Of a stretch of DNA of 64,000 nucleotides, positions 4,245 to 62,238 are shown one piece after another. The number at the start of each line of letters is the position of its first letter. The first letter of the stretch is position 1. Both the position numbers and the translations under genes were made by a program. The stretch is from Glaucostegus cemiculus (Eukaryota). The notes under the pieces were generated by a model. The model was given only the letters and a program-made list of their open reading frames with translations, ran no database searches and was not told the origin of the DNA. Location of the stretch: assembly GCA_976551045.1 (NCBI GenBank), contig CDPCPM010000095.1, positions 19,468,001-19,532,000 of the forward strand. The letters run 5' to 3'.

Positions 4245-4670
4245 TCATCCCTCTGTCTTCTTTACCCCTTCTCTTTTCCCTTCCCTTCCCTGCCCTTACG
4301 ACCTGCCCTCACCCACACCTTCCTCCCTCTGGTTCCCCACCTCCTTGCCTTTATTCCATGGTCCACTGTCCTCTCCTATCAGATGCCATCTTCCTCAGCC
4401 CTTCTCTTCCACCGATCACCTCCCAGCTTTTCACATCACCCCCACTCCCCAGCTCCACCTCCCTACACACCTACCTTCCCCCGTCACCTGGATTCACCTA
4501 TCGCCTGCCAGATTGTACTCGTCTCCCTCCCTCCAAGCTTCTATACTGCCTTCTGCCCACCTTCTTTCCAGTCCTGATGAAAGGTCTCGGCCAAAAATGT
4601 CGACTGTTCATTTCCCTCCATCGATGCTGCCTGACCTGCTGCGTTCCTCCAGCATTTTGTGCGTGTTGCT
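4245..4670 (+). mobile_element. Penelope-derived non-autonomous repeat (pseudo-LTR-like) with degenerate hammerhead motif
   Basis: Pyrimidine-rich body, then cagtc-ctgatga-aaggtctcggcc-aaaa-atgtc-gactg (4569-4606), then the family terminus 'gatgctgcctgacctgctgcgttcctccagca'. Confidence 0.75.
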
Positions 4671-5995
4671 GAAGAGAATTCCAAAACCTTCTGTAGAACG
4701 ATTAGAAGCAAGAAGGTAGTGGGGGGAAGAGTCGATCCCCACAGGGACCAAAAGGGAAGTTTTTGTGTGGAGCCAGAAGATACGTTGGTGTCCTGAATGA
4801 ATACTTTGTGTCGGTATTCACTGGGAAGAAACATGGGTAGGATGGAGAGCTAGGAGAGGTGTATGTTGATAGTCTCAGGGAAGAGGAAGTTTTACCAATA
4901 TCAACGCACATGAAATCGATCCCAGGGTGTTACGGGAAGCAAGGGAGAAAATTACTGGGGTTCTGATGGAAATATTTTGCAAGGTCTTTAGTCATGGGCG
5001 AGGTACTGTAAGTCTGGAGAGTAGCTGATGTTGTTCCCATATTCAAGAAGGGCAGTAGGGATGAGCCAGGAAACTACAGGCTGGTGAGCCTTGCGTCAGC
5101 AGGAAAACTTGGAAAAATTCATGGGAATAGGATTTATGATCACTTGGAAAAGCAGGAGTCAGCATGGCTTAGTGTGTGAGAAATCTTGCCTCACAAATCT
5201 GAGTTTTTTGAGGAGGTTACCAAGATGAAGGCCGGGCAGTAGATATGGTGCACCTAGACATTAGCAAGGCTTTTGACAACATCCCGCACGGTAAGCTGGT
5301 CCAGAAAGTTATGGCAGGTGGGGTCCAAGGTGATTTGGCAAACTGGATCCAAGATTGGCTTGGTGAATGGAGGCAGAGGACAGTAGTGGAGGGTTGGTTT
5401 CCTGACTAGTCTGTAACTCACGGTGTACTAAGGGATCGGTGCTGGTATATAAATAACTTGGATGAGAATGTCTGTGGTCTGATGAAATTTGCTAATGACG
5501 TTAAGGTTGGTGGAATTGTAAATAGTGAGGATGGTTGCCTTGGGATACAGAGGGACATAGATCATCTGGAAAGTTGGGCAGAGTGGTGGCAGATGGAATT
5601 TAATCCAGGTAAGTACGAGGTAATATATTTTGGGTCATCTAATACTGGTTGTTCATATAGAGCAAATAGCAGGGAAATGTTGATGCACAGAGAACCTTAG
5701 GGTGCAAGTTTGTAGCTCCCTGAAAATGGTGACACAGGTGAATAGGGTAATGAAGAAGACATTTAGCTTGCTTACCTTCGTAGATAGGGGTATTGATTAT
5801 AAGAGCCAGGACATTATGTTGCAGCTGTACAAAACATTGGTTCGGCCACCCTTCTGAGTATTGTGTGCAGTTCTGGTCACCGCACCATGGAAAGAATGTG
5901 GTAGCACTAGAAAGAGTGTAGAAGAGATTCATTGGGGTGTTTTCTATAATGGAGGGCTTTAGTTACAAGGAGATGTTGAGTAGGCAGGGATTGTT

Positions 5996-10920: not shown

Positions 10921-12324
10921 TGTGGCAAAAAGCAAAATGACCAGTGATGTCCACAACCCATAAATGAATTAAAACTGAAATAGGTTAGTGGAATATTAGT
11001 TGGAGTTCCTAGCAGGATTACTTTGGGGCTTTCAGATAGAATCCAGCTTAAATGATGAATCAAGTTAAAAGGAACTCATTGCTGTAAGACTATATCAGTG
11101 CCTTGTTGAATTGTGAGACCTTGTCTTTCCTGAATATAACAAATGCATATGCCTAATGAACTTAACTGGAGTTATCTTCCATTCCCCATTCTAAAGCAAA
11201 ACAGCCTGAGTTCTTAATTAAATTAAAAAAAATATTGCATGGTCCTTAATCATAATTTTCAGCAGAAGAACTCACTTCACTGCACCATTAATATTCTTAC
11301 TCGCTTACATTGCAAGTTGATTAAATAAACCAGATTATTTCATGTTACTGTAATCAAAAGAATCATCTTACATGTACCAGTAAGCAATATAAGTAATGAA
11401 TTTGGGAGGTTGATTTTGAATGTGATGCTTGGAGGACTCTTGAGCATTGCTCCCCATCCCGATGAATAACCCCCTGCACTTCCACCAACACCCCCCCCAG
11501 CCCCCTCCTCACTGTGATCTCAAAAGCATTTGACCATTTGTAAAATCTTGCAACCGCTTCACTTTTATTGGTGTCTGAATGCTGGTTTCTTACAAGTGAA
11601 CCATATAGCTACAATTATCAAGTGAATTTATGTTCATGGTTTGAATTGCATTGATATTGTGGGATTCTAGAATGATATAGAGGAGAGTATAAGTCAGGCA
11701 AGTCAAATAATGTAACAATAATCAAGGACAGGACAGAAAACTACTGTCCTTTAAACATGTAATTCATTTAAATCATATAACTATTACAGCAAAATCTATT
11801 TAATAACCATAAATTACATTGATATTTTATGTGGGTTGGCATGATATAGTGTTTTAATTAATCTTTTGGTGGAAGATAATCAAAGCATAAATGGCTGTTT
11901 GCAGATGATTAACAGCAATTTTTGAACACTCCACATACTTTAATTTCACGCCTGTCTCCTATAAAATCTGATTCATAAATTCAAGTGAGCAATTGTGAAA
12001 TGGCGGTGGGACTTTCTTTCTCAACGTGCAGAGACAGAGGTCTAGACTTTAAATTACATTCTAATGGACTGAGAGTTATTATAGGGGGCCTCAGCAACTT
12101 TATAGTTACATTCATAAACTGAGTGGGAGGTCATTTTGACATTTTTGGAATTCCTTTCAATTTTTACTACACTATATATTACACATCATTTTTTTTAGCA
12201 TTCTTTAGGTGGATGACAAATTCTCTATTTGTGTCCAGAGAGCTTTAAATGTCAAATGTGGTTTATTTGGTAACTCTCTGATTTCCACGAGAAGCAGCTT
12301 CAGTGCAAGTCCCAGTCCAGCCGT

Positions 12325-14170
12325 GGACAAAATAAAAACAGAAAATTCTGGAAAAACTCAGCAGGTGAAGCTGCATCTCTGGGAAGAGAAACAGGGGTAA
12401 GATTTCAGGTCGAAGACCCTTCGTCAGAACTGGAAAGGAGACAAAAGAAGATCATAAAACTGTAAGGAGGATTGGGGAAGAGGTCTCTGATAGGGTAAAA
12501 CTAGGGTAACCGTGAGGATAACATGTAAACAAAGTTATCTGGTCAATGAATGAATGGCAGCAGTTAGAGAGTGAGAACATAGACAAAAGGACACTGGCCA
12601 AATAATGTAGGAGTTGCAGAGCAGGAAGACATGCCTGGCAGGTCAATCAGGGCATGTTCTCCACTCCCAAGAGAAACCAAAGGAAGCTGAGTCATTATAC
12701 AGACAGAAAAATTACCTGAAGTTGTAGGATTCAATGTTAAGTTCAGAAGGCTGCAACGAGCCCAGACAGAAGATGAGGTGCTGTTCTTCAAGCTGCAGGG
12801 AGGGTGAGGGAGAGTAGTGTATATCTGATAGGGTTAAACCAGGATAACCATGGGGACAAGGTTATAGAACATAGAGCAGGATAAAATGTCGGCACAACAT
12901 TGTGGGCCGAAGTGCCTGTACTGTGCTGTAGTGTTCTAAGATCTATCTAACCCTTCTCTCCCACATGGCCCCCTATTTTTCTATCATTCATGTGTCTACT
13001 GAAGAGTCTCTTAAATGTCCCTAATGTATCTGCCCCCACAACCTCTGCTGGCAGTGCATTCCACGCACCCACCACTCTCTGTGTATTCCACGCACCCCTG
13101 ACATCCCCCTTATACCTAAAATTATGTCCCTTCATGTTAGCCATTTTTACTTGGTGAAAAAGGTCTCTGACTGTCCACTCAATCTATGCCTCTTATCATC
13201 TTGCACACCTCTATCAAGTCACCTCTCATCCTCCTTCTCTCCAAAGAGAAAAGCCCTAGCTCGCTCAACCTATCCTCATAAGACATGCTCTCCAATCCAG
13301 GCAACATCCTGGTAAATCTCCTCTGCACCCTCTCTAAAGCTTCCACATCCTTTCTATAATGAGGCGACCAGAACTGAACACAATACTCCAAGTGTGGTCT
13401 GACCAGAGTTCTATAGATCTGCAACATCACCTCACAGCTCTTGAGCTCAACACCCCGACTAATGAAGGCCAACACTCCATACGCCTTCTTAATAACCCTT
13501 TCAACCTGCATGGCAACCTTGACGGACCTATGGACATGGACCCCAAAATCCCTCTGTTATCTGGTCAGTGAGTGAATGGGAGCAGTTAGAGAGTGAGAGC
13601 GCAGACAAATGAACATGGACAATAGAATGTGGGAGTTGCAAAATACAGAGCAGGAAGGCATGGCTGGCAGGTCATGCTGGGCAAGTCCTCCACTCTCAAT
13701 GGGGAAAAAAACCAGAAAAAAAATGGGGAGAAAAAAAAGAAACAAACAAGCTGAGTCAATATAGAGGATGGACAACCAATACCGTCGGAGAAATCAAGTT
13801 ACCTGAAGCTGTAGAATTCAATATTGAGTCCAGAAGGCTGCAATGTGCCCAGACAGAAAATGCGATGCTGTTCCTTAAGTTTACTATGGACCTAATTGTA
13901 ACAGTATAGGAGGTCATAAGCCGATAGATCAGAGTGGGAGTGGGATGGAGAAATTAAAGTCGTGGGCAACAGGATGCTCAGGGTCACCTCTGCAGACTGA
14001 ACACAGCTGTTCCACAAAGCAGCCACCCAATCTGCAATTTGGTTTCTCCAGTGCAGAGGGGGACACACCGTTAACACCAATTGGAGGGAGTGCGGGTGAG
14101 TGGCCACTTCAGAGACTGTTTGTGACCCTGGATGGTAAAAAGGGTGGTGGTGAAAGGACAATTTTGAGTA
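12325..14170 (-). mobile_element. Penelope-like element relic in partial tandem (two 3' segments), split by a CR1 insertion
   Basis: Minus strand encodes LEEQHLIFCLGSLQP (~12750-12793) and a degenerate GIY-YIG region (~13800-14150). 12535-12790 is similar to 13556-13870. Hammerhead core at 12398-12432. Confidence 0.7.
12866..13555 (-). mobile_element. CR1 3' fragment with 5-bp TSD
   Basis: ORF 13179-13511 ([24 protein letters not shown]). GTTAT at 12861-12865 and 13556-13560. Confidence 0.9.
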
Positions 14171-21689: not shown

Positions 21690-21990
21690 CACGAGAGACT
21701 GCAGGTGCTGGAATCTGGAACAACAACCTGCTGGCAGAACTCAGCAGGTTGAGCAGCATCGGTGGGGGTGGCAGGGGGAAGGAATGGAGATGGAAAAGTG
21801 TAGGACACGGGAGGGAAAACGGTGGGGAGAAGTGGTGAATTGAATGCACATGCCTGACACCCTGTCTGGGGCTGAAGTGGGAGACCTGGTCCTGATGCAG
21901 GGTGTTAACCCCAAACATCGACAATTCCTTTCCTCCCACAGATGCTGCTCGACCCGCTGAGTTCCTCTCGCAGATTGTTTGTTGATCATT
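21690..21990. mobile_element. PLE-derived fold-back element (inverted terminal arms) with degenerate hammerhead
   Basis: 'gaactcagcaggttgagcagcatc' (~21737) is inverted relative to 'gatgctgctcgacccgctgagttc' (~21941). 'gtcctgatgcagggtgttaaccccaaacatcgac' at ~21889. Confidence 0.7.
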
Positions 21991-23649: not shown

Positions 23650-26410
23650 GTTAGGGGTAGAAGTAGGCCACTTGGTTCCTAAAGCCTGCTCTGCTATTTA
23701 ATGTCAGGGCTGATCTGATTATAACCTTAGCTCCTTTCATTCCCCTTGCTTACCCAGAGAGTATGACCTCTGTCTTAAAATTATTCAAAGAACTTGCTTC
23801 CCCTTCCTTTTGAGGAAGAGGCTTCCAAAGACTTACCACAAAAAAGAATTTCTCCTCATCACAGTCTTAAGTAGGTGACCCCTGTTTTTTAAATAGTGGC
23901 CCTTGTTCTAAATTCTCCCACAAGAGGGAACAAACTCTGCACGTCCAACCTGTCAAGACCAGTCAGGATTTTACATCCTTCAATCAAGTCTCCTCTTATT
24001 CATCTGAACTCCAGTGGGAAGAACCCCAGTCTGTCCAACCTTTCCACATAAGACAGCTCAGCCATTTCAGGTATCAGTCCAGTGAATCTTCTCTGAATTG
24101 CTTCCATTGCATAAACATCCCTCCTTCAATAAGGAGATCAATACTGTACACAGTTGTGGGTTTACTAATGCCCTGTATAACTGAAGCATAATCTCCCTAA
24201 GTTTGTGTTCTGTTCTCCTAGCAGTAAACAATAAGCATTCCTAATTACTTGCTGAACCTCTGTCCTGACTCTTTGTGAATTATGCACCAGGACACTCAGA
24301 TCCCTGTGGCTTTCAGAGCTGTTGAATCTCTCACCCTTTAGATAACATGCTTCTTTTTTTTATAGACATTAGGAGCAGAAGTAGACCATTCTGCCCTTCA
24401 AGTCTGCTCCGCCATTTTGAGATCATGGCTGATCCTCAACACTCAATATCCCGTTCCTGCCTTGTCCCCATATCCCTTGATTCCCCTATCTATAAGAAAC
24501 CTATCTAGCTCCTTCTTGAAAGTGCCCAGAGAATTGGCCTCCACTGCCCTCTGAGGCAGTGCGTTCCACAAACTCACAACCCTCTGGGAGAAAAAGTTTT
24601 TCCTCACCTCTGTCCTAAATGGTCTACTCCTTATTCTTAAATCATGCCCTCTGGTCCTGGACTTCCCCAACATCTGGAACATATTTCCTGTCTCTATCTT
24701 GTCCAATCCCTTAACAATCTTGTATGTTTCAATCAGATCCCCTCTCAATCTTCTCAATTCCAGCGTGTACAATCCCAGTCTATCCAACCTCTCTGCATAA
24801 GACAGTCCCAACATCCCCAGAATTAACCTCGTAAACCTACGCTGCATGCCCTCTATAGCCAGGATATCCTTCCTTAACCCTGGAGACCAAAACTGTACAC
24901 AATACTCCAGAAGTGGTCTCACCAGGGCCCTGTACAAATGCAAAAGAATCTCTTTGCTCTTGTACTCAATTCCCCTCGTAATACAGGCCAACATTCCATT
25001 AGCCTTCATCACCGCCTGCTGCACTTGCTCATTCACTTTCAGCGACTGATGAACAAGGACTCCTAGATCCCTTTGTACCTCCCCTTTACCTAACTCCACA
25101 CCATTCAGATAATAATCTGCCTTCCTGTTCCTGCTCCCAAAGTGGATAACCTCACACTTATCCACATTAAACTTCATCTGCCAAGTATCTGCCCACTCAC
25201 CCAACCTATCCAAGTCACCTTGAATCCTCCTAACTTCCTCTACACATGTCGCACTGCCACCCAACTTTGTATCATCAGCAAACTTGCTAATGTTCTTCTC
25301 AATGCCTTCATCTAAATCATTAACATAGATTGTAAACAGCTGCGGTCCCAGCACAGAGTCTTGCGGCACCCCACTAGTCACGGCCTGCCATTCCGAGAAA
25401 CATCCATTCACCCCTACCCTTTGTTTCCTATCTGCCAACCAGTTTTCTATCCAAGTTAATACCCTCCCCCCAATTCCATGAGCCCTCATTTTACCCACCA
25501 ATCTCCTGTGTAGGCACCTTATCAAATGCCTTCTGAAAGTCGAGGTACACAACATCCATCAAATCTCCCTCGTCTATTTTCCTGGTTACATCCTCAAAAA
25601 AAACTCCAGTAGATTAGTCAAGCACAACTTGCCCGTGGTAAATCCATGTTGACTCGACCCAATCCTATCATTGCTATCCAAATATGTCGCTATTTCATCC
25701 TTAATAATGGACTCTAGCATCTTCCCCAGCACAGACATCAGGCTAACCGGATGATAGTTCCCCGTTTTCTCCCTCCCTCCTTTCTTAAAAAGTGGGATAA
25801 CATTGGCCACTCTCCAATCCTCAGGAACTGACCCAGAATCGAGGGAACATCGGAAAATGATCACCAATGCATCCACAGTTTCTAGAGCCACCTCCTTCAG
25901 TACCCTGTTTTAAAACATATTCCTGGCCATAACAAAAAATTTCATGTTTTTCAACATTAAACTCCACTTGACAGATCTTTAACAATTCACTTGACTTATC
26001 TACATCCCCCTGTGATCTTCTTCTGTTCTCTTAAGAGTTTCCCTTCCCACCTAACTTTATATCGTCAACACATTTAGTAGCCAGACCTTTGGTGCCTTCA
26101 TCCAAGTTATTTCTATAAGCTGCGAAAAGTTGAGGACCCAGCACCGATCTCTGTGGCACACCACTTGTTACATCTTGGCAATCATAAAACAACCAATTTA
26201 TGCCTTCTCTCTGTTTCCTGTTGACCAACTGATCATCTACCTACATCAATATATTACCTCCTACACATGGAGTTTTTATTTTTCTGCTCTGACCTTTGAT
26301 GCTGAAGTTTATTGAATGCCATCTACCACCTCACCTTTATTCATAAACATGTTACTTCTTTAAAGAATTCCGATAACTTGATCAACATAACTTCCCTTTC
26401 ATAAAACGAT
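23650..26410 (-). mobile_element. Old degraded CR1 hosting a younger CR1 (24365-25908)
   Basis: ORF 26031-26228 (VTSGVPQRSVLGPQLF). Degraded CR1 3' region at 23650-24350. Confidence 0.7.
24365..25908 (-). mobile_element. Young 5'-truncated CR1 LINE with a largely intact RT region
   Basis: 370-aa ORF 24443-25555 ([33 protein letters not shown]) preceded by frameshifted ORF 25586-25891 (PEDWRVANVIPLFKKG, NYHPVSL). Confidence 0.95.
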
Positions 26411-28981: not shown

Positions 28982-30522
28982 TCAGTTGAGACTAGCCCTG
29001 TCTGGCCCAATGATTACAAATTCAATCAGGATCAATTCATGAATGGGGAAATGGGTGTCGCTGGCAAAGCTCAGAATCCCAGAAATGCAGAAGTTGGTAA
29101 AACTTAACTTACAAAGAGCCAAGGTTTTACGTTTGTTTTTATTATACTCAAGCAGGCATGTTCTTGCTTCAACTCACAAAAAGCTGGAGGAAGTCAGCAG
29201 CTCAGGCAGCATCTGTGAGGGGAAGTGGACAATCGTTGTTTCAGGTCGGGATCCTTCATCTGGACTAAGAGAGTAGAGGGGAGATAGCTGGTATAAAGAC
29301 GTGGAGGGGAGGGGTGGAGCAAGAGCTAGCAGGCGTTTTGTGTGTTGCTCCGGATTCCAGCATCTTGGTCAGCATGGACCGGTTGGGCCGAAGGGCAGGT
29401 TTCAGTGCTGTATGACTTTATGAACTCTGTCTGCAGTGTCTCTATTCTAGCTTCTGGCTAGTATCATAAAGTTTCTGGGATCCTGAGTAGACAATGCTGG
29501 AAACAATGCTTACTGTGTGGCAACTTGCTTAAACCCAACACTGTTTTACCTTCCAGATCATTCACCACTTCTTAAAATGTTGCTGAAATTTTGACACCTT
29601 AATCATTCTTTTCTTCTCAGAAGACACCTGAGCTGGCACATAATGAGATCAGCTACAAAAACAGGAAACGGCAGTCTGTTAAAAGCAAAACAATAATATT
29701 TAAAGTTATGTACAGCTCGCAACTCTACAATTCACAATTGCTCACTTACATCATAAGTGTGGAATCTCATTTTAAAAGTTCAGTTCAGGAGCAATTATTA
29801 ACTGCCAATCTCAGCTTCACTTGCTGGTCACTTGGGCTAAACTCAGGATTTAGGATTGGGATTACATACAGGCTAGTTTATGTTGATGTTGTTCAGACTG
29901 GAGTCTGGTGTCACCAAAATCTGAGTATTAAATAACCTGTTCTTCCCAGTAACCAGTCAACGTCCGTGTACTAGGTGCTGGGGATGCTAATTGACTTCCC
30001 AAAGCCTTTATCTCACCTGCAAACATCACCCGTGCGTGACAGAGCTTCCACTGACAGCTCCTACAAAGGTCAAGAAGCTAAACACCATGCAGGATAAAGC
30101 AATTCAGTTGATTCACATCCTAACCTAAATGTCTTCCCCCTCCACCATGTGCATGTGCATGCAATGGTTGGAGCACACACCTTTCATAAAATGTGATCCA
30201 GCAATCTCCCTAAACCTGCAACCTCCAACAATGAGGGCATTCGGCGCTTGGGAACATTCCTATTTGCCCTTCCCCTTTAAGTTGTACGCTAAACTGACCT
30301 GGAAATGTATCATCAATCCTTCATTACTGCTGGTTCTAAATATTGGAACTCCCCACTCAACCACGATCTGGAATGGAACAAGAAGGCAACCGATCACTAT
30401 CTCCTCAAGAGATATTAGTGAAGAATAACTGTGAGTTTTGCCAGCGACACCCATTTCCCCATTCATGAATTGATCCTGATTTATTACTAATCATTGGGCC
30501 AGACAGGACTAGTCTCAACTGA
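28982..30522. repeat. ~90-bp inverted repeat pair (28982-29073 and 30432-30522)
   Basis: 'tcagttgagactagccctgtctggcccaatgatta...aatcaggatcaattcatgaatggggaaatgggtgtcgctggcaaa' is present on opposite strands. Confidence 0.9.
29170..29365 (-). mobile_element. PLE-derived repeat with degenerate hammerhead and inverted tail
   Basis: Minus strand 'agtccagatgaaggatcccgacctgaaac'. Terminal piece 'gttttgtgtgttgctccggattccagcatct' lies in the opposite orientation. Confidence 0.7.
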
Positions 30523-31594: not shown

Positions 31595-32110
31595 AGCTGG
31601 GTGCAGAGGAGATTTACCAGGATCCTGCCTGGATTGGAGAGCATGCCTTGTGTGCGGGCTAGGGCTTTTCTCTTTGGAGAGAAGGAGGATGGGATGTGAC
31701 TTGATATAGGTGCATACAGCAAACATTTTGGCGTCAGTCTCAGGGTTTGCTGTATTTTGATTGATGACAAGAGGCATAGATCGAGTGGACAGTCAGATTT
31801 TTTCCCAGGGTGACAATGACTAACATGAGGGGGCATCATTTTAAGGTGATTGGAGGAAGGTATAAGGGAAATGTCAGGGGTAAGTTTTCTACACAGACAG
31901 TGGTGGGTGTATGGAAAGCACTGCCTGCAGAAATGGTGGGAGCAGATACATTAGGGACATTTAAGAAACTCTTAGATAGACACATGAATGATAGAAAAAT
32001 AGGGGGCTATGTGGGAGGGAAGGGTTAGAGAGATCTTAGAATAGGATAAAATGTCGGCACCACATTGTGGGCCAAAGTGCCTGTACTTTGCTGTAGTGAT
32101 CTATGTTCTA
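31595..32110 (+). mobile_element. CR1 3' fragment containing a 36-bp TIR insert
   Basis: ORF 31810-32028 (RGHHFKVIGGRYKGNVRGKF). Insert at 31717-31752. Confidence 0.85.
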
Positions 32111-33014
32111 TAACTCGAGGTTAAGCGGTGAGATCACCTGCTGATCCATCTGACTAGATTCTTGCAATTAGATGTGTGATGGGCACTGAGAGACTGTAAC
32201 ACATGAGGTCTGGGCTTCCCTGAATGACATAAGAAGTAGGAACAGGAATAGATCATCTGGCCCTTTACACCTGCTCCACCATTACGGCTGATCTTTTACG
32301 TCAGTGACATTTTCCAGCACTATCCTCATATTCCTGATTCCCATAATGTTGAGAAACCTATTGATCTTTGCTTTGAATGAACACAGTGATTGAAATTCCA
32401 CAGCACTCCAGGGTAGAGAATTCCAAGATCCTCTGCATGAAGACATTTCTTGTCATCTCAGTCCTGCACAGCCTGACCCTTCTTTTGAAAATATGCCTTG
32501 GTGTCACCTGATCCTTGACTTCTTAGTCAGATGAATCATCAGAACTTTTAAGGATTTTGAATGCTTTGATAAGGTCTTTTCACGTTCTTCAATATTTCAG
32601 AGAATTGGAGTCCCAGTTTATTCAATCACTTCTCGTACAGTGAACTCGCCATCCCTGGAATCAGTTGATTCAACCTTCAATGCCTTTCTTCTCTGACAAG
32701 TACATGCTTTCTGAGGTAAGGTACTTCAGGTGTGGCCTTACAAGGGAACTATACAATTGCAATAAAACTTGATCACTCCAATACTCAAATCCTCTCATAA
32801 TAAAGTTAACATACCATTTGCCTTCCTAATCACTTGTTGTACCTGCACATTGACCTTCAATGATTGTGTGCAAGCACACTTAGGTCCCTTTTAATATCAG
32901 TATTGTCCAATATCTCACCATTTAACAAATACCCTCTCTCTGTGTTATGCACACCAAAGTGGATAACCTTTCTGCATTTGATTTCATTTCTTGTTCTTGC
33001 CCACACACTCCAAA

Positions 33015-34242: not shown

Positions 34243-35899
34243 TCTTGTCCACATCACCCGAAGTCTCTTACTATCCTCCTCCGTGTTCACAAACCAATCT
34301 AGTTTAGTATCATCAGTAAACTTGGAAATACAATATTTATTCCCCTCAGTGTGCATTGTAAATAGCTGGGATTGATTCCTGTTGTACCCCACTAGTCACA
34401 GAGTGCCTATCTGATAACAATTCATTGATTCCCAGTCTTTGTTTGCAATCCAATAATTAATTCTTAATTCACATATTGCCGTCAATTCCATGTGCTCTAC
34501 TACTGTGTGCAACCTTACCAAAAGCTTTCCAAAACTCCAGATGTACTGGTTCCCTATTATTTATTCTGTTAGTCATATCCTCAAAGAATGCCAGAAGGTT
34601 AGTCAGATATGATTTTCCTTTCATAAATCTATGTTGACTCTATGATTCCCTCCAAGATGAAGTGTTTATTACATTCGGCATTATAGATTCCTGCAATTTC
34701 CCTCTCACTGACGTTAACCTGTGGTTCCCTGTGTTCTCTCTGCCCCATTTTTTAAACAGTCAGGTCACATTTTCTCTCATCCACTGGAACAATTCCATAA
34801 TCTATAGGATCTGGAAGATGATAAGTGGAGAATCTGCTATCTCTAAAGCCACTTCTTTCAAAACTGTGCAACGTTGATGATCAGTCCTTGGGATTTATCA
34901 GCTTTCAAGTTAACCAGCTATGCTGGTTCTATATTTTGACAAATACTTAGTTCTTTCAGTTACTCATTCTCGCTGAACAATTCTCTCTTATATCTGACAA
35001 GTTTTATTTGTCTTCTTCAATGAAGACAGGCACAATGTAATTATTTAATACCACTGCCATTTCCTCATTTCCCATTATAACTTCTCCTCTCTCTGTCCGC
35101 AAGGGGCTTACAATTACTGTCACAAGTCTTTTTCTTTATTTTTTATGTACTTATAAAGGCTTTTTATGTTTCCTGCCAATCTACTTTCAGATTCTGCCTT
35201 GCCTTTCTTTACCAATTTCTTTGTTTTCCTTTGCTGAGTTCTAAAATGGTCCCAATCCTCAGGCCTATTTCTACTTTGAGCAACATTCCAAGCCTCGTCC
35301 TTGGATTTAATATTGTCTTTCATTTCTCTTGTCAGCCAAGGATGAATCACTTTTCCTTTTTGATTTTTGCACCTTAAGAGGGATTTTTTTTTGCTGATTA
35401 TGCATTCTTTCTTTTAAGCAGCAACCATTACCTTATGTCAATCGCCATATCTTTCAATAAATTCTCCCAATCAGCCGCAGCCAACCAAAACATAAACAGA
35501 AAATGGTAGAAATATTTAGCAGGTCAGGCAACATCTATGGAAAGAGAAGCAGAATTAACATTTCAGGTCAAAGAACCTGAGTGTTTTCAACACTTTCTGT
35601 TATTACTTCTGATTTTCAGCATCTGTGGGCTTTTTAATTTTCATCCACAGCCAACTCTCTTCTTATACCTTCATGGTTCTCTTTGTTAAGATTTAAGATT
35701 CTGATCTCACACCAAGCCACATTGCTTTCAAAATCAATGCAAGATTCTTTCATATTATGATCACCCTTCCTCAAAGGTGCCTAGACTGGTAAATTATTAA
35801 TTAACAACTTCTCATTGCACAAAATCCATTGATTTCTCAACTATTGATCTAGAAAAATCTCCTTTACATTCAATGAATTTATTTTTCACCTTATTACCT

Positions 35900-36025: not shown

Positions 36026-36984
36026 TACAGCACATTTAACTTGTCTGGTTGAAGTCTTCCATTTTGCACCCCTTTTACATCCATCTTTAACCTCTTGAAT
36101 TATGACACACCCAATATTACAACTATTATTTGGTGGTCTAGAAAAAACACCTACCATTGTTTTCTATCCTTTTTGTCTCTTCTTAGCTCAACACAAAGTG
36201 ATTCTAATTTAACATCGTGATCGTCAAGCCAAGCTCATTCTCCCCACTGCACTGATCAACTCTAATTAGCAAATGCTTAACCACCCATTTTTTTTTTAAC
36301 CTGTCCTTCCAAAATGTCAAATACAATGGAATATTTAATTCTCAGCCTTGGTCACACTGCAGCACATTTCTGTAATTGCAATTAGACCATATCAGTACTT
36401 GTTGTAAATGCTTTGAGCATTCAGATGGAGTACCTTTAATTTTGCTATTTAAACTATTTCCTGTATTTTGACCCCACTTTGTTGTCTGACTTTTTTGGTG
36501 CTGTCTATTTATTTTGCATACAGTATATCTAATTTCCCCTTCCTGCCCCATAACAGCCTACTTTGCACTCTCCCCAATGTTGCTAACACTCCCCCGTACA
36601 CCTCCCAGCAGGACTTTGGTTCTGGCCCAACTGAGATTCAAGCTTCCAATCCGTACAGTTGTGGCCTGCCCACATCTGGTTCCAATGCCTCAGACATACA
36701 TAGCCCTTCCTTCTGCGCCATCTACTTAGCCACGCATTCATCTGTTCTATACTCTTATCTCTGTACTTATTAGCACGCGGCACTAGAAATAATCCTGAGA
36801 TTACTACTTTTGAGGTCTTGTTGCTTAATTTCTTTTCCAACTCCCTTGCATCACTCTTACTCTTCCTGGTCTTACAAGGGAATTATAACAAAAATATATC
36901 TTTTTTGGCCACTTCTGTTAGCAACCCCTTTAATCTGCCCTCTGCAATTTTTGTAACTCGCCGTGGCAGGGCACCCAATCAAAA

Positions 36985-38046
36985 TTGCAATGGAGGCGCT
37001 CGGTGGGTCAGGCAGCATCTGTGGAGGCGGAGACATGGTCGACGTTTTGGGCCGAGCCTCTGCATCAGGACTGAGAGTGCGGAGAGGGGAGAGAGCCGGC
37101 GTAAAATGGTGAGAGGGAGGGGGTGAGGCAGGAGTTGGCAGGTGATAGGTGGAACCGGGTGAGGAGGTGGAGGATGGGCAGATGGAGCCAGGTGGGGGAA
37201 GGGGACAACGGTGGTGGTGAGTTGGGAGATCATGGATGGTGTGTGATTGTTCCCGGAAATGGTTCGTGTGGGTCTTGGGGGTATTAAGAATTCTGGACAC
37301 CGTTTGGTTTACTAACAAAGAGAACTTTATTATAAGCTACAGACGCAGAACGCAGGGCAGGATGGACGGGAACGGGGGTACATTCACTCACACACACGCG
37401 CACTTGGATACCCGCGAGACACGAGAGAGGGATCGCAACAGGGGTAAAATAAACACACACACACACGCTGATGCACACAGGTAATAAGTAACAGTATACT
37501 ACTTCAGACTATAACACTACAGTGCTGGGCCCACCCTAGCACTGGCTCTAACACTACCCAGAGTCTGAGTGGAACACTCCCTGACCATGTGGTGATGCAC
37601 TCTTACTGAAGGTTTCTGTAGTGTTACCTCACTACTCCCAGTTCGTAGAAAGAGAGAGAGCTGGGGGTCTCAGCCCTTTTTATGGTGCTGGAAGGCTGGG
37701 TGGAGCCTTACTGTTACCATTTGAAAGAGCCAATAGTGGAGAGGTCAAGGACAAAAGCCTCTGCCACAGCCAATGGTCAAGGGAGGTCAAAGACAAAAGA
37801 ACTGGTTAGACAGGTTTAGGGTCAAGGGATACTCTCCCACCTGAGGGGTGGGTGGAGCTGCACCTTGATTGACAGGAGGCTAACTTCCGATTAGAAGGAG
37901 CAATACTGTCTTCTGGTCAGCAGGGGTCGGGGGTCACTGCTGTCACGTGACAGTCATGTTGATTTCTCACAACAGTGATTGGTAGAGACTGAAGGAGAGA
38001 GAGAAACAAAGAAAAGGGGGGCAGATGGAGCCAGGTAGGTGGAGGG
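36985..38046 (-). mobile_element. PLE-derived repeat with hammerhead variant, split by a solo LTR
   Basis: Minus strand 'cagtcctgatgcagaggctcggcccaaaacgtcgacc' (37036-37073). The repeat body continues after 37975. Confidence 0.7.
37248..37974 (-). mobile_element. Solo LTR, family B (727 bp)
   Basis: TGTT...AACA termini; 5-bp TSD GTGAT (37243-37247, 37975-37979). Minus-strand AATAAA (37326-37331) and TATA-like 'cataaaaagg' (~37675-37684). Confidence 0.85.
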
Positions 38047-41829: not shown

Positions 41830-42060
41830 CACTGCAGATGTTGGAAATGGCAAATAAAAACAGAAAATGCAGGAAACACACAGCGTGTCAGGCAGGATCC
41901 GTGGCAAGAGAAATAGAATTAAAATTTCAGGTCAAAGACCCTTCATCAGATGTGTGAAAGAGAGAAGATAAGTTAGTTTTCAGTTACAGAGAGGGTGGGG
42001 AAGGGATGGGGCAGGACTAAGGAAATATTTCTGATAAGGTGAAGCCAGAGAAGTGGAGAG
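41830..42060 (-). mobile_element. PLE-derived repeat with hammerhead core
   Basis: Minus strand 'ctgatgaagggtctttgacctgaaa' (~41924-41949). Confidence 0.65.
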
Positions 42061-45049: not shown

Positions 45050-45290
45050 AGGCTGCTGCCGCTGGGAATGTGACCATAAACAGACGTGATTGGAAGGGGT
45101 TCACCCAGATCTAGAGGGAGAGAAACAGTCAATGTTTCCAATCAATGATCTGTCATCAGAAGTGGAGAAAGTTAGAGACAAAACAAGTTTTAAGAAGCAG
45201 AGAAAGAGGAGAAGGAAGCGGAGAGCAAAAGGGCAGGTCGATGACAGGATGGAAGGCAGGAGAGATTAACAAAGAGTGAAGTGGAAGGAT
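45050..45290 (-). mobile_element. Diverged PLE-derived repeat with hammerhead core
   Basis: Minus strand 'ctgatgacagatcattgattggaaacattgactg' (~45126-45159). Confidence 0.55.
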
Positions 45291-47820: not shown

Positions 47821-49396
47821 CCTGTGTTATATTTAGAGGAAGTCAGTGCATCAGATGACTGTGTAATAATTTCTAAGAAACAGCCAGTACTTCAGAACAT
47901 GGTTAAGGCAAACCTCCATCTTTCTTTCTGGAAGGATTAAAGGTGATCTGTTTGTTCTGATGCTTCATCCAAGTGCCCATCTCCACCGCCTCGAACGCAG
48001 CCATGCACTGGAAGCACAACAAGCCTATCCTCATATTTCTCCTACCATTACACGTGTAGGCTTTCCATTCCAGGAGCATGTGTTGAAGCAGTAGTTCCAC
48101 TTAAGGTCTGGTGCTTTAAGAGATTCCTCTGTACCCTTGTGCATGACTCTTACGTGTTAAGTGCTTAAGTTAATCACTTCTCCATCGCCCTACAAGAAAT
48201 TATCAGGTGCCACTTTGACACTTCTATGTGCTACACAGTTCCTGGTTCTGGAAGTTCGATGCACAAGATGTAACTGATATTGTAGGAGTCATCTTAATAG
48301 ATTGTGCAAAAGTGGGTGCAAACATCTGAGTTATGGGTATGTTGCAACTCTCCTGCCTTCATGTCCATGGGCAGCAAGTGATACTGTTTGCCAGTTCCAG
48401 TTATGCTGAAGCAGTGGATTTTTTGCATCTGCACGTTTCATGCCAACTTTGAATAGTTTACATCAACTTAAGTCCCAAATGATCAAAACATGCAAATTCT
48501 CAGTTTAACTGGAGCTGGAGTGAGCCAATTAAATTATCCAATCTGTGCCACATTGAGGTTTTTCCTTTTTTCTCTGACTTCTCTTTAATTTTGGTTCATT
48601 TCTGACTCCCATTTGTCTTAATGAAAAAAAACACTAAATTAGCACAACTGAATGCTCCCGATTAGTCTCTAGACTGCACTGATAGCAGTGAAAGCACCTG
48701 AACGTAAATTTGCCAACAATGTCACAATTGTGACATAAGTAAATGTATCATCTGATCTGAAGGTTACAACATATATTGCATAATCTTCTGCTATTATCTC
48801 TCGTAGAGGAATTATAGGAATGACTTTGGAGACAAATTGAGGCTAGTAACATTTGTATAATAATTTAACATCCCAAAATTCTCATTTGATATATAAAGTT
48901 AATAAGAGGTTATTTACCAGATTCTAAATATATGAGCACCATCTCCTGTCTTCTTGTTACTGCAAGGCCAAGCCGTTTTCTTGTAGGTAAAATAATCATC
49001 AAAATAAGTTGATCAGTGAAAATTATAATTTGTGTGATTTTATATATACTGGATTTTAAGTAGAAAATAATTGCTGCATGAAAGTTCTGGTGACTGATTC
49101 CACAATTCTCGCTCTCATTGGGATACAAGATATTCTCAGTCACTAAATGAGAAACACATTGCAATGAGATTAGGTAGCAAAAGAAATGGTTTATCACACA
49201 GGGAAAGAGCACTTTCTGAATACCAAGGCATTGGCTGTGTGCTCTGATTTAAGTCAACATTCCACTCTGGTACAGGCACTCCCACGTGATGCAAGAGTTC
49301 TATTCCTGGGAACTGTCCATAAGCCGATTTTTCTGTAAGCATGAACTTCTGTTTTCTCTAGTCACCCATATCGTATCACTACATTTGTTATAATTC

Positions 49397-49956
49397 GCAA
49401 AAGTGCTGGAGGAAGTCAGCAAGTCAGGCAGCATCTGTGGAGAGAAATAAACAGTCGACGATTTGGGCCAAGACCCTTCATTATAACTGGAAAGGAAGAA
49501 GTAATAAGCTGAGAGGTGATAGGTAGAAAAGGCGAAGGGTTGAAGAAGAGGGCAGCAGACCATGGAATAGAGGATGGAGGAAGAGATCGGCAGGTCAATC
49601 AAAGTGGGGGTAGGGAGCCACGGGAATGAGGGAAGACAAAGGAGTTGGGGGGGGTAATGGAAGAAAAGGAAGGGTTAGGGTTACTGGAAGTTAGAGAAAT
49701 CAGGGTTGAGGCTGTCAGGCTGGAGACTCCCAAGGCGGAATATGAGGTGTTGTTCCTCCAACCTGCACCTGGCCTCAATGTGGCAGTAGAGGAGGCCGTG
49801 GATAGACATGTCAGTGTGGGAGTAGGATGTGGAATTGAAGTGGGTGGCCACCGGGAAGTCCTGACCGTTGCGGCGGACGGAGCGAAGGTGCTCGACAAAG
49901 CGGTCACCCAATCTGTGTTGGGATTCCAGCATCTGTAGAATTCCTTGTGTCTCTGT
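49397..49956 (-). mobile_element. 5'-truncated Penelope-like element (GIY-YIG C-terminus + pseudo-LTR) with 15-bp TSD
   Basis: RLGDRFVEHLRSV...PVATHFN...LEEQHLIFRLGSLQPDSLN (ORF 49681-49959). TSD catttgttataattc (49382-49396) / cacttgttataattc (49957-49971). Confidence 0.9.
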
Positions 49957-50897: not shown

Positions 50898-51704
50898 ATT
50901 AATTGTCAATATTTTTATTCTAAAGCAAAAGGTGCAAATATTTACATCTATCATGGGGGTAATGTAATTGTAATTACCATTTTTAAAGTAATAGTGCTCA
51001 ATCTAAGTTTAAGGCCCTGCATCTCATCTTTCAGTTTGCAGACTTCAAAACACATTCTAACAAATTCAGATTAAAACTACTGTTCCCTTTTACAGACAGC
51101 AGCTGCTGTTAGTGAACCTGCTACTTTCATTTACATATCCATCGGATCCATTTTTTCCCCACCCCTCTCCATTCTTTTTTGCCTTCGACTATTGTTCTTT
51201 TTGTCATTTAATCTCTCCTATTATTTTCATCTCAGAGATTCCATCTAACTCTTTCTGCCTTCTGTCATTCCCTGACTCCATCCTGGTTTGAAACTTGTAA
51301 GATCTCCAACATCTTCCAGTTCTGATGAAAGATCATCGATTGAAACATAATGCCTCGTGCATCTTCATTACTTTCTATTTGCCTTCTCACCTTTGATCAG
51401 ATATCCATTCACATCTCCCTGCTCAGCAACTGACCATGGCTCTGACATTTTTCAAATGGATTCCAGCAGAAATTCCTTCCTGCATGTTTTGGATTCACCT
51501 ATGATTATAGATACATCCAGGAAATTCATCAATTCTGTACTTAATGTCTTCATCGCATCCCGAGATCCACATTCAACACCACACACCATTGCATACATGT
51601 TCCTAGTTGCTTCCTTCAGCAGCACTAACTCATCTCTAAGGCCTCTTACCTTGCTTTGTTTGTTGCAAACTGCAGTATCTTTCAATACCTTAAGAAGGTG
51701 GCAT

Positions 51705-52215
51705 CTTCTCTGGTTAGACCACACTTGGAATATTGTGTTCAGTTCTGGTCGCCACATTATAGAAAGGATGTGGAAGCTTTAGAGGGGGTGCGGAGGAGAT
51801 TTACCAGGATGCTGCCCGGATTGGAGAGCATATCGTATGAGGATATGTTGAGCGAACTATGGCTTTTCTCTTTAGAGTGAAGGAGGATGAGAGGGGACTT
51901 GATAGAGGTGTACGAGACAATAGAGTGGAAAGTCAGAGACTTTTTCCCAGGGCGACAATGGCTAACATGAGGGGGCATAAATTTAAGGTGATTGGAGAAG
52001 GTATAGGGGGGATGTCAGAGGTAAGTTTTTTTTTACACAGAGAGTGGTGGGTGCATGGAACACACTGCCAGCAGAGGTTGTGGGGGCAGATACATTAGGG
52101 ACATTTAAGGGACTCTTAGATAAACACAGAATTATAGAAAAATAGGGGGCTATGTGGGAGTGAAGGTTTAGATAGGTCTTAGAGCAGGATAAAATGTCGG
52201 CACATCGTGGGCCTC
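51705..52215 (+). mobile_element. CR1 3' fragment
   Basis: [38 protein letters not shown] plus CR1 tail. Confidence 0.9.
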
Positions 52216-54205: not shown

Positions 54206-55241
54206 TGAAGCTTAAGGGCCGATATCAACAAGCCTTGTTCCATGCATTGGGCTCAGATGTAGCACTCTCTACTGCATCCAGACACACTACCCACTCAATG
54301 CTACAAAACCAAATTTATGAAGATATGTCCTTGGATCTCCCAGTCTCCAGTCTATGAAGGATCTCAAGAGTTTCAGATACATTAAGAGCAAACCAAAGGT
54401 TTGGGACATCAAAGGATTGAAATAAGCTTTGCACTGTCTGGGGTAAGCTGATCATGGTAGGGCAGGCTGGGGGAGAAAGTGGGGGGCAACTTGCCTAATG
54501 CAGGTGTTCTCAGAGCAACCCTGGCAAGAAACTGGGATGCATTTCTCCACACTGTAGCCTGCACTGCACTGATGCTTGAGGGAATGAGAATTTTCTGCGC
54601 TGGACTTGATGTGGACTGCTTTGTCCTGCATGGAATCGAGCTTCCTGAATGACCTTGAGTACTTTGAAATGCTAAACTAACATTGGAATCTTAAATGCTC
54701 TATGAACACAAAATTATGCTTAAGATTTTTGAAGTTAATTGCAAAACAATTGCTGAACAAACTTAAAAACTACAGGCTCTTACTGTCACGTCAGATGGTT
54801 TCATCTGGAAAATGCCAATCTCCTGCCTGTCTTTCCATCACCATATACAAAGGCCTGGGTGGAAAGACTCACCCAGTAGCTATGTTTGAGTGATGGGAAG
54901 CCAGTCTTTTATTCATTACCTTCTGCTTCAGAGACAATTTAATCTGCTGGGCCACTTTTACATATTTAAATTTATGCAGAATATTTGAAATTGAATGGCA
55001 GATGCAAAGGATAAATGAAAAAATGTGTTCAAAATATAAATTTCCAGTATACATATCAACATCAATGGTGAGGACACTAAATAAAACAATACTCTGCCAG
55101 CAATGGCCAGAAAGAGATGTCAAACAATCTAATTGGCACTTTGATGCTTGCTATCATAATGAAAAAGAAGCCTTGCATTTATGTAACAAAAAGTGTTGGA
55201 GGAACTCAGCAGGTCAGGCAGCATCTGTGGAGAGAAATAAA

Positions 55242-55279
55242 CAGTCAATGTTTCAGGTCGAGACCCTTCATCAGGACTG
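55242..55279 (-). ncRNA. Minimal type I hammerhead ribozyme motif in a PLE-derived repeat (~55187-55310)
   Basis: Minus strand CAGUC-CUGAUGA-A-GGGUCUCGACCU-GAAA-CAUU-GACUG: intact core boxes, stem I CAGUC/GACUG, stem II hairpin, NUH triplet. Activity untested. Confidence 0.7.
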
Positions 55280-55344
55280 GTGATGAAGGATCTCCATCCG
55301 AGAGCCATCACTGTTGCAATGTAGGATTTGTCTTTTAATTCATT

Positions 55345-55780
55345 TTACAAAATATGGACTTTGCCGGCAAGGCCAGCATTTATTGCCTATCCATTATTAC
55401 CCTGAGTAGGTGGTGTTGAGCCACCTTCTTTAAGCACTGCAGTCCTTCTTGTGAAGGTGATAACACAGTACTGTTGGGGAGGGTGTTCAAGGACTTAGAC
55501 CCAGTGACAATAAAGGAATGGGTAATACATTTTCTAATCAGGAATGTGTGTGGCTTGAAAGGGAACCTGCAGATGATTGAGTCTGTTTACACCTGCTGCC
55601 CATGTACTTCTTGGTGGTAAGAGGTCACCGGTTTAGGAGGTGCTGTTGGATTAGCCTGAGGTGAGTAAAAGCAGTGTATTTTGTTGATGGTCCACACCGT
55701 GGTGCGCTGATGATGGAGGGAATAAATGCTTAGAGTGGTGGATGTGGGTGCCAATCAAATGGAGGGCTTTGTCCTGACTG
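55345..55780 (-). mobile_element. Old LINE (CR1/L2 group) 3' fragment
   Basis: Same family as 8485-8890 ('ggcaaggccagcatttattgcc'). Confidence 0.55.
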
Positions 55781-58634
55781 GGAATGGGCTACTTACTGTT
55801 GTGGCAATGTAGTGGCCAATTTGCACACAGCAAGCTCCCACAAAAAGCTTTCTGTTGATAAGTAGATAATTTAAGTTTGTGCTATTACTTGAGAGATAGT
55901 CATTGCTAATGGTACAAGAGCAAAGTTCCCCTCTCTTTTTTGAAATGATGAACTGGTAACACATGAAAACCAAAGATGAAAGAGCAGGCTTCCTTGGCAA
56001 AGCTTTACATTTACCAAAATGGGTGCGGATGTATATCTCCAGAGCGGGCAGCACCCATTACACACCCACCAGAGTTGAGATACGTAGTCCTAAATGATCC
56101 TTACAGTGAAGGGATAGAACACAAACAAATGGCACCAGCAAGTCAGCAGAATCCATGAGCATTGGGTGTAAGCTGAGGAGATGCGCTCTCTTCTCTGACC
56201 ATGGAAAGCCTATTCCAAAAATTTCTTCTGCAAGAGACACAAGAAGACATCGTGGAGATGTTGTGTAGTAGGCTGAAAATGGGACTTTGCTGATGCACTG
56301 CATTCTTGTGGCAAAGGGCAAACAAACATCAAGTTCCTGTTAACCAGCATCAGGAACTCAGTGGTGGTGTAAGGTTAAATCCAGCTGATGAAATGCTACC
56401 TGATCTGAATGTCCACCGAGTCCCGAACAAGTATTCACAATCTACCCTGTCAGCCACATTAACCTAAGCCAGCTGAAGGAAGACACCAGATGGACAGACC
56501 TTGTCGAAGCAGTGAACCAGGTTTCAGAAGAGACGGATGTTAACAAGGGATAATCAACCCAGGACAGTGTAGGATTTATCAGAATGGATCATGTCACCAA
56601 TTCAGTATCAAAAAAGAGCTGGCTGTGTGCAAGCTGCCTGCCATGCTTCCTGCACTACATCAGAGACTACGATTTAAAAGCAAAGTACTACAGATGCTGG
56701 AAATTTGAAACAAAACAGAAAACATTGGAAATACTCATTGGTGAAGCATCACTAAGCTGAAACATTAGCTCCGTTTCTCACTCCACAGATGCTGCCTCAC
56801 AAGGCCGGCATTCTCTGCTGTACTTCAGAAGGACTCACCAAGTCGTAAAGTTATTTGTGATGTTTTGAAGGGGACATGAGAGGTGCTGAATAAATGTTTT
56901 CTTATTTTATATGCAATCTCCCAGACAGGTTTTGATTGCCTGAGAGAATTGGTGTGGAATTTTACTGGGTATTTCATTTTCCCTTCATGAAGCCTGTTTA
57001 TTTTTCTTGGTTTATTTTGCCGCTGTAAGGCTGTGCTGGAGGAAGCAGGGTGTAGAGGGCAAAGGGAAGGTGTACTTAACAGAGCAATGTGGGACAGTCT
57101 TGATGGTCTTTCCTTTACTTGACACTTTCACATATTACTAAGGCTGCTGAAAGTACACTGAATATCGAACAAGCTATCTCATATTCTACGGTTTCTTTGA
57201 TCGATGAACAAACACCGTGACAGCTCACTCATCTCAAGCTATAACCCGCATTTATTAAGAAACTGATCTGGCAAAAGCAGGAGAAAATATTTGACAAGAC
57301 TGCAAAACTTTACCTTAACCTACACTCCTATTCTCAGAGTAATAGAGTTTTGATGTCCTTGAGTTTCTCCAGAATGACATCCAATTTAGATTGGGTACAG
57401 CGATGCGGTGTTTATACAAGATGTTGAATATTCATGCTGTGTCTTTGCTAACCCTTGCATGTTAAAAGATTGGTGATGCAGAAACTCATTAAATGGCCTC
57501 AATAGTTACACCAAGTCTTTCAAATTTATCTTGAGACAAAGAGTTTTTTTGAAAGAAGGTCTCCCACTACAGAACAAAGCTGTCACTCATATTTGGATCC
57601 AACGGTGCTAGGCTGGTTATCCAGAAATCTGTTTCAAGACATCTATTTCTCTTAGGTCAAGGACAAACCACAAGACCACTTCCTTGTAGGACCTCCTGAT
57701 GAGATAAATGCTTATTTCTATTTCTTTCTCACAGTCTACTCTCTCATTAACTGTTTGTGTCACCGAGGTAGATTTGGAAATTAACATTCATTAAGCAGTC
57801 TACCTATGCAAAGGTGACTTATCCAGCTCTTTGAAGTGACATTAGGACAGACTACATGGTATTTTCATAGAAACTATCGATGGTGAAGAGTAACCAAATA
57901 TAATAAAAATGCAAGGATTGAAATTCATCCTCCATATCAAGCACAAAAAATACGATGTGAAAGCACAAGTGTGTTCCCATATTCCAGTTCTGTTAGTCTC
58001 AAAGTACAATCTTCAGTTACATTGCATGCATTATATAGGTACATGATGGATGAGGAATTTCTATCTTGTAGTCTTCCTTATTTGAAGCAATCCATATTTC
58101 TGATCCCTCATGATCTCTGTTATTTTTTTAATTTAAGCCAAATTTTGACTAGCGAGTTAGATATCTTCAATGGCACAAGTGTTTTCATTACTAAAAGCAG
58201 TCAGCACTGTGTTATCAGGACACACCCTGAAGATTATAGGTTCAAATTATAATGGGGCAGGCTGCGAATCCATCCATTTGTTATGGGACAGTGCTTGGTT
58301 CCGTGAGACAACTATCCACTCTACGCAAAAGTTGCATTTCACTATGTGTTTCGATGTACATGTGACTAATAATAATATCTTATCTTATCTGCAGAATCTC
58401 ATGTCTCCTTTTGTTCTTCTGTTTTGAACATCATATCGCAGAATGGAAGATGTCTGTGTCTGATATCGTTTAATATAGGGTGGCTGTTACATCCAAGCTT
58501 GACAAAGTGACACCTTAGTCCAATGACAAAGTGATCTATGAAGTCAGGTCTCCATTGCGTGGACATTAAACATAATAATCCTATTGCTGTGAGTCACTGC
58601 TCTAACTGTTGAAGGTTTTGTTTATAAAGCTGTG

Positions 58635-58960: not shown

Positions 58961-59027
58961 CTGACTTATCTTTGACTGTTTGCCAGGCATCTGTAGTTTT
59001 ATCTCCATTTTCAATGATCTCTATTGG

Positions 59028-59542
59028 AACACAGAACGCTACAGCACAGTACAGGCCCTTCAGACCACAATGTTGTGCCGACATTTTATCCTGCTCTAAG
59101 ATCTTTCTAACCCTTCCCTCCCACATAGCCTTCTCCGCACCCCCCCCCCCAATTTCTCTATAGTTCATGTGTCTATGTTAGAGTCTCTTAAATGTCCCTA
59201 ATATATCTGCCACCACAACCTCTGCTGGCAGTGCACTCCATGCAGCCACCACTCTCTGTGTAAAAAAAACTTACCCCTGACATCCCCCTTATATCTTCCC
59301 CCAATCACCTTAAAATTATGTCCCCTCATGTTGGCCATTTTCGTCCTGGAAAAGAGTCTCTGACTGTCCACTCGATTTATGCCTCTTATCTTGTACACCT
59401 CTATCAAGTCACCTCTCATCCTCCTCCTCTCCAAAGAGAAAAGCCCTAACTCACTCAGCCTATCCTCATAAGACATGCTCTCCAATCCAGGCAACATCCT
59501 GGTAAATCTCCTCTGCGCCCTCTCTAAAGCTTCCACATCCAC
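59028..59542 (-). mobile_element. CR1 3' fragment (young family)
   Basis: ORF 59198-59542 [37 protein letters not shown]. Confidence 0.9.
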
Positions 59543-62019: not shown

Positions 62020-62238
62020 AATTGCAGGGGCTGTGATTCTGAAATAAAAAAAAACAAAATGCTAGCAATGGCACAGCAGGTAGCATCTGTGGAGAGAAAA
62101 AAGGATTAAGCACTTCATGTTGATGACCTTTCATCAGAACTGATGCCAGGCCATTACCTGTCACATTAATTAACTCTGTTTATCTCCACATGGATGCTGC
62201 TTTACATGCAGAGTGTTTCTAGCATTGTCTGTTTTTAC
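62020..62238. mobile_element. Diverged PLE-derived fold-back element
   Basis: 'agcatctgtggaga' (~62082) is inverted relative to 'tctccacatggatgctgct' (~62183). Central 'tcatcagaactgatg'. Confidence 0.55.

Follow-up and report, generated by a model that had tools for sequence, protein, structure and literature searches.

Minimal type I hammerhead ribozymes occur in the pseudo-LTRs (pLTRs) of metazoan Penelope-like elements (PLEs; Cervera and de la Pena 2014, PMC4209133). Their core comprises CUGANGA, an extra nucleotide before 10.1, G10.1-C11.1, GAAA, a palindromic 15.2-16.2 and an NUH triplet, and they have a short stem I and a pyrimidine-rich 5' flank; most are single motifs from truncated elements, some on the opposite strand, with thousands per genome. 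All of these features are common to the repeat described here. As monomers, the published minimal motifs fail to cleave (PMC4209133). The hammerhead of Poseidon, a PLE of Anolis carolinensis, needs the element's protein, is dispensable for insertion in vitro and gave no RNA-seq read ends (Frangieh et al. 2024, PMC11167929), and the role of PLE hammerheads is unsettled (PMC8557442, PMC11167929). Variants of the core exist in natural hammerheads, U4C among them (PMC3088659).

The original prediction for the window (the whole 64-kb stretch of DNA analysed here) had listed 12 copies of one such repeat and proposed a retrozyme-like family with possible effects on a host intron. Our analysis indicates that these repeats are very probably truncated, mutated 3' pLTRs of several endonuclease-bearing PLE subfamilies, likely of Neptune type, and that their hammerheads are likely inert fossils.

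Parent element and copies in the window

A Penelope pLTR origin had been predicted, and it was supported by the linkage of the motif-bearing module to reverse transcriptase (RT) and endonuclease (EN) sequence and by a locus with two pLTRs. Of 30 loci selected by the endonuclease alone, 29 had the module 218-332 nt downstream of the end of the match and on the same strand, and the motif sat at a fixed 250-400 nt past the GIY-YIG stop codon. Upstream, longer copies crossed a pyrimidine-rich stretch and then entered the coding sequence of GIY-YIG and RT. In an arbitrary genome sample (750 kb, as 75 pieces of 10 kb from round coordinates), the module followed RT/EN sequence in 15 of 15 places, and in the window EN sequence adjoins the copies at 12398 and 49452. 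Thirty further loci were chosen by the N-terminal part of the ORF; three had a well-scoring motif before the ORF on the same strand, and these were extended. One (L297) showed a pLTR-ORF-pLTR arrangement: its direct repeats, 630-660 nt long and 77% alike, enclose RT and EN, and the motifs are spaced 3.1 kb from each other. In the other two (L295 and L296) the ORF was immediately preceded by the motif. The repeat is the 3' pLTR of a PLE with RT and a GIY-YIG endonuclease.

Pfam returned two clear matches among 10 fragments; RVT_1 was matched with E 7.6e-7 (score 29.5 against a curated cut-off of 29.6) and GIY-YIG with E 8.9e-4 (score 19.9 against a cut-off of 22.6). The RT-EN linker reads C-X4-C-X2-C in L083 and P0001, and a CX2-5CxxC linker is typical of the Neptune and Nematis clades (Craig et al. 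2021, PMC8557442); judged from its sequence, the element is likely of Neptune type. No intact ORF was found among 150 frames scored of 56,963 candidates, the longest having 395 aa. The element protein was closest to gene models of Mobula and Hypanus (60-72% identical, 7 matches among 202 candidates), which makes a ray the likely host. Public ray gene models under host-gene names (P0003, P0004, P0007) contain the RT-EN sequence of the element and may be annotation artefacts or exonised copies. At L295:2100-2700, an ATG some 25 nt beyond the cut site begins a reading frame that crosses the tail and continues into the ORF; inserted 3' ends therefore fall inside the first part of the ORF, a feature also of Anolis Poseidon.

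A profile search of the window gave 19 matches, 12 on the minus and 7 on the plus strand, with no matches in reversed-sequence controls, and BLAST picked up the copy at 51316 in addition. Homologous sequence was present at all 12 positions of the original prediction, on the strands given there, and the window held about eight further pieces of the repeat (Table 1). The single consensus proposed for them stood in part: it equals the CpG-aware majority of subfamily A, but the copies fall into four or more subfamilies that differ in core and stems. Both core boxes were found at hammerhead spacing at 12398, 41920, 45126, 51317 and 55242 only, and no copy in the window combined them with the palindromic stem III. 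An Rfam scan of the window, which misses the minimal form of the hammerhead, yielded none at E<=10. The minus-strand excess (p=0.36) lies within chance, the split over the window and its 200 kb flanks being 48 versus 38 (p=0.33), and head-to-head pairs supplied 12 of the 19 window matches. The density of the repeat in the window is ordinary for the genome.

The piece at 13556..14160 appears to be a partial-tandem remnant. The copies at 45132-45193 and 51288-51348 have a common stem II in which an A-U type pair takes the place of the G-C seen in the others, and possibly represent a sixth subfamily.

Table 1. Copies of the repeat, parts of the 55242 copy and LINE fragments in the window
Feature	Position	Strand	Remarks
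Subfamily A copy	4253..4693	+	pyrimidine-rich 3' UTR of about 320 nt; AAAA for GAAA in the motif at 4569-4606
Head-to-head pair, partial pLTR ends	9481-9552, 9795-9896	-, +	absent from the original prediction; about 240 nt of a different repeat between
Subfamily D copy	12310..12801	-	last 29 GIY-YIG codons (12801-12715), then 3' UTR, then motif, which retains the boxes but has lost palindrome and stem I
Second EN C-terminus and 3' UTR piece	13556..14160	-	upstream of the 12398 copy; CR1/L2-type LINE fragment between
Head-to-head pair, subfamily B	21698-21785, 21887-21990	-, +	core CUGAUGC, second box lost
Subfamily A2 copy	29164..29365	-	core CAGAUGA; short inverted piece 29333-29365
Head-to-head pair, partial subfamily D ends	35481..35621		junction 35577/35578
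Subfamily B copy	36981..37203	-	core CUGAUGC, AAAA for GAAA
Subfamily D copy	41830..42004	-	palindrome and stem I lost, boxes kept
Old D-like copy	45062..45193	-	palindrome lost, boxes kept
Subfamily A copy	49396..49944	-	GIY-YIG C-terminal coding sequence (49944-49690) directly before, 71% identical to P0001; both boxes broken
Old D-like copy	51288..51348	+	boxes kept; lacks NUH triplet, stem I and 3' part
5'-truncated PLE pLTR end bearing the 55242 motif	55186..55280	-	starts at stem I front, stops about 60 nt beyond the cut site
Decayed minimal type I hammerhead motif, subfamily A	55242..55279	-	38-mer
Stem I of the 55242 copy	55279-55275 with 55246-55242	-	5 bp
Core of the 55242 copy	55274-55268, 55267, 55254-55251	-	CUGAUGA, extra A, GAAA
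Stem II of the 55242 copy	55266-55255	-	4 bp
Ancestral cut site of the 55242 copy	between 55247 and 55246	-	where cleavage would fall
Inverted piece of the same pLTR	55281..55315	+	35 nt, 26/35 identical, head-to-head; overlooked in the original prediction
Head-to-head pair, partial ends	56695..56829		absent from the original prediction
Head-to-head pair, subfamily D ends	62030..62238		junction 62139/62140; both cores broken
CR1/L2-type LINE RT C-terminus	24443-25558	-	371-aa open frame, RVT_1 E 1.5e-12
Further CR1/L2-type LINE fragments	5678-6777, 12858-13556, 18948-19653, 31599-32111, 51708-52213, 59024-59540		

Hammerhead architecture and its decay

Five subfamily majorities were derived (A, A2, B, C and D). 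As predicted, the architecture is that of a minimal type I hammerhead, with CUGANGA, GAAA and NUH in type I order in the majorities of A, C and D. Subfamilies C and D have a GUU triplet, and D has U-A at 2.1/1.1 and G.U or A-U at 10.1/11.1. The core is changed in A2 (U4A) and in B (A9C). When copies were assigned from the downstream flank only, position 4 was A in 17 of 30 A2 copies and position 9 was C in 9 of 10 B copies; copies in the window are 29164-29280 for A2 and 21887-21990 and 36986-37083 for B. The nearest majority was A2 for 40 and B for 34 of the 188 matches in the arbitrary sample. Our search for papers on U4A or A9C with hammerhead terms found none. Lunse et al. 2017 reportedly described about 150,000 PLE-linked hammerhead variants, which may already include both.

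The extra A between 9 and 10.1 was invariant in 109 aligned copies, and a C-G palindrome at 15.2-16.2 was present in all five majorities after CpG correction. Stem pairing was assessed on 101 distinct search-selected copies, the 109 of 130 loci kept being those without gaps. Stems I and II were paired in 86.1% of cells, a value as high being obtained in 2 of 500 shuffles, while slid controls gave 16-37%. For these search-selected copies, the covariation score was 0.203 against 0.200 and was reached by 175 of 500 shuffles. There was one clear double change, from C-G (63) to U-A (19) at 2.1/1.1, which represents a single event; covariation thus lends the stems weak support.

The 38-mer at 55242 retains both boxes and both stems, as the original prediction had it. 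The GAAA box is followed by CAUU. The copy differs from the family majority at 11.1 (55255), 16.2 (55249) and 17 (55247), and all three departures are CpG transitions, in agreement with the earlier interpretation of AUU as a decayed GUC. A G.U pair replaces G10.1-C11.1, and the palindrome needed for a dimer was lost through one of these transitions: the copy reads ACAU, not ACGU, and a dimer would hold two C.A mismatches. A 14-bp hairpin is predicted between 55281-55294, in the inverted piece, and 55260-55273, covering the catalytic box and stem II. Taken alone, the 38-mer had predicted pair probabilities of 0.72-1.0 for stems I and II; these fell to 0.000 on addition of 40 nt of upstream sequence, and likewise with 100 or 200 nt of context, where the best fold that keeps the hammerhead was calculated to be 15 kcal/mol worse. 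Folding thus predicts that the inverted arm buries the catalytic core. No target-site duplication (TSD) was found for this unit. Contigs of three other organisms cover its flanks, from which they differ in about 6-9% of letters; they break off at 55188 and begin again near 55310-55360. Among the contigs listed for these relatives none bridges the insertion, and there is a weak hint that the insertion is common to relatives and old.

Decay was measured on the 145 of 274 matches that span the motif. Outside CpG sites, divergence amounted to 205/1365 (15.0%) in the core and 1115/7216 (15.5%) in the flank (p=0.71), and 402 of 957 CpG sites (42%) had diverged. The catalytic core decays as the flank does, without selection on the core. 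In subfamily B the core had diverged at 13/165 positions (7.9%) versus 126/796 (15.8%) in a flank that includes a poorly aligned C tract. The boxes, the palindrome and the NUH triplet were all kept in only 2 of the 145 spanning copies, neither of them in the window, and a descriptor scan for the full motif found one in 750 kb, one in the 200 kb flanks and none in the window. The full motif may be kept in a few thousand copies genome-wide. Folding and the published core requirements predict that the copies are unable to cut.

These data bear on the proposal that intact sense-strand copies cut a host intron during transcription and thereby serve a host function. Intronic hammerheads are known in amniotes (PMC6155905), 6 of the 8 unpaired window copies lie on the minus strand, and one full motif in 750 kb would leave a few thousand candidates in the genome. 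Yet no window copy keeps the boxes together with the palindrome, the core of the 55242 copy is predicted to be sequestered, and its nearest same-strand partners lie about 6-7 kb off and are broken. Neither a significant strand bias nor selection on the core was observed. Moreover, minimal monomers show no cleavage (PMC4209133) and the Anolis motif requires the element's protein (PMC11167929). No host exon was found in the 300 of 1385 ORFs scanned: for ORFs outside repeats, Pfam gave nothing in 150 of 296 in the window and nothing in 150 of 1089 in the flanks. Nor was the candidate microexon of the original prediction located. Host-intron cutting is unlikely, and as a host function of intact copies we give it next to no credence.

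Abundance, insertion ends and the mode of spread

The arbitrary sample contained 188 matches, 98 on the plus and 90 on the minus strand. This corresponds to 2.5 matches per 10 kb genome-wide, or about 7x10^5 pieces (5.9-8.5 x 10^5) in a 2.85-Gb genome when both halves of inverted pairs are counted, and bears out the high copy number that had been predicted. Most copies indeed carry no coding sequence: RT/EN sequence lay within 700 nt upstream in 15 of the 188, leaving 173 (92%) without it, a state that results from truncation.

The 5' ends fell at nearly every position from -800 to +70. Of 188 copies, 182 continued for 55 nt or more beyond the cut site. The 3' ends fell into two clusters separated by about 35 nt, some 60-80 and 100-110 nt from that site, resembling PLE tails. 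An inverted 5' partner in head-to-head orientation was found for 79 of 188 matches versus 11.6 expected, the maximum in 300 placements being 25 (examples are L260 and L263).

Beyond the position, linkage, truncation, inversion and decay observed here, we infer from the work on Poseidon (PMC11167929) how such copies would arise. The RT/EN protein would nick the target and begin to make cDNA at a point 60-110 nt downstream of where the ribozyme cuts; the template RNA would be one left uncut at the ribozyme site, as published for the Anolis element. Synthesis of cDNA would mostly end early or fold back, and most insertions would therefore be stumps of 100-500 nt. The motif in the parent RNA would cleave only slowly, as a dimer or with the assistance of a protein. 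After insertion, the three core CpGs would decay fast and the remainder neutrally.

A type I hammerhead in non-coding copies at high number had suggested a retrozyme in the published sense, in which tandem hammerhead units give rise to circular RNA monomers that reinsert, and a preprint describes tandem pLTR-derived retrozymes in one chondrichthyan (10.64898/2026.07.22.740005). For the present family this is very improbable. Tandem arrays overlapped none of the 274 matches in 1.01 Mb, direct neighbours within 1 kb numbered 54 against 53.1 expected, and only 2 of 188 5' ends lay at the cut site (+27 to +29), past which the 3' ends run. Furthermore, the minimal PLE motif lacks the contacts between loop 1 and loop 2 that retrozyme hammerheads have (PMC7229834). 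With neither tandem arrays, nor an excess of direct neighbours, nor a fixed unit in the 1.0 Mb examined, the idea of a retrozyme-like family is not supported.

The 5' ends showed one local excess, at the front of stem I (-5 to -3), where 25 of 188 were found versus about 2.4 per base on either side (3.5-fold). This would be expected if part of the short copies were a SINE-like non-autonomous unit, whose RNA starts near the stem I front and is copied in trans by the PLE protein. Among 273 matches, 45 started there, and none of them continued upstream into the pyrimidine-rich parent sequence. TSD-like repeats were present in 5 of the 27 such starters without an inverted arm, versus 0.6 in shuffled sequence, although one of these calls is doubtful, being the remnant of an inverted arm. 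The 92% of sampled matches without a coding neighbour also fit such a unit, and a polypyrimidine tract with CAG ends exactly at the stem I front, where an RNA end or junction is conceivable. The peak nevertheless comprises 13% of copies, against 5' ends at almost all other positions, and 23 of the 45 starters are fold-back junctions, which may reflect microhomology between the mutually reverse-complementary arms of stem I. Since subfamily sequences are, in addition, common to short and long copies, we consider a SINE-like unit unlikely and favour truncation of pLTR-bearing PLE copies.

Two splice-like motifs border the 3' UTR. In each of the five groups, the majority sequence closes the ORF with G-TAA, which gives a donor-like GTAA (L031-L060, L170-L194 and others; at 49690 and 12715 in the window), and the polypyrimidine tract with CAG stops inside stem I and is kept even where it does not pair. 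They resemble the intron of D. virilis whose end lies at helix I (PMC4209133) and the Penelope intron (PMC2377424). None of the 67 EN ends with a downstream motif joins stem I directly, as a spliced copy would, the shortest spacers being 38 and 105 nt. The motifs would be compatible with an intron over the 3' UTR. Splicing that completes stem I was rejected, as the exon ends fail to complement the 3' arm in A or C. A broader scheme appears doubtful: that A2 and B were amplified with U4A and A9C cores, cleavage being dispensable for the spread of Penelope, that the stem I front is the 3' splice site of a pLTR intron starting at the ORF stop, and that RNA from there is copied in trans in a SINE-like manner.

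Comparison with known systems

The repeats belong to a very abundant PLE family of ray type, the arrangement of which has itself already been described. Caution is called for with hammerhead-like motifs spaced at 4-5 kb in such genomes, since they are debris of transposons. At the same time, five related subfamilies with natural changes in core, triplet and stems, together with the record of their spread, would provide a test set for whether cleavage matters to transposition.

Compared with the minimal hammerheads of Cervera and de la Pena (PMC4209133), stem II is here just 4-5 bp. That study reported 4,000-9,000 descriptor matches in coelacanth and Xenopus, against about 7x10^5 mostly decayed pieces here; the file of its supplement searched here holds no shark, skate or Callorhinchus entry, and the U4A and A9C cores are absent from the part of its alignment used for comparison. 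With the EN+ PLEs of the Neptune or Nematis type (PMC8557442), the element has in common RT, the CX2-5CxxC linker and, at the C-terminus, GIY-YIG, as well as strong 5' truncation, partial-tandem pLTRs, an inverted truncated 5' copy and an optional tail of 30-40 bp; unlike in those elements, an intact ORF was not seen. As with Poseidon (PMC11167929), insertions end downstream of the ribozyme at two tail-defining sites and copies span the cut site, but Poseidon is of another clade, and the ends here, which lie beyond the cut site by about 60-80 and 100-110 nt, are known from sequence. Non-LTR retrozymes (Cervera and de la Pena 2020, PMC7229834; Li et al., 10.64898/2026.07.22.740005) likewise have a type I hammerhead, are non-coding and are tied to PLEs. 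They are, however, tandem units of 150-450 bp, typically with canonical hammerheads, whereas the family described here is dispersed, inverted, variable in length and of the minimal type.
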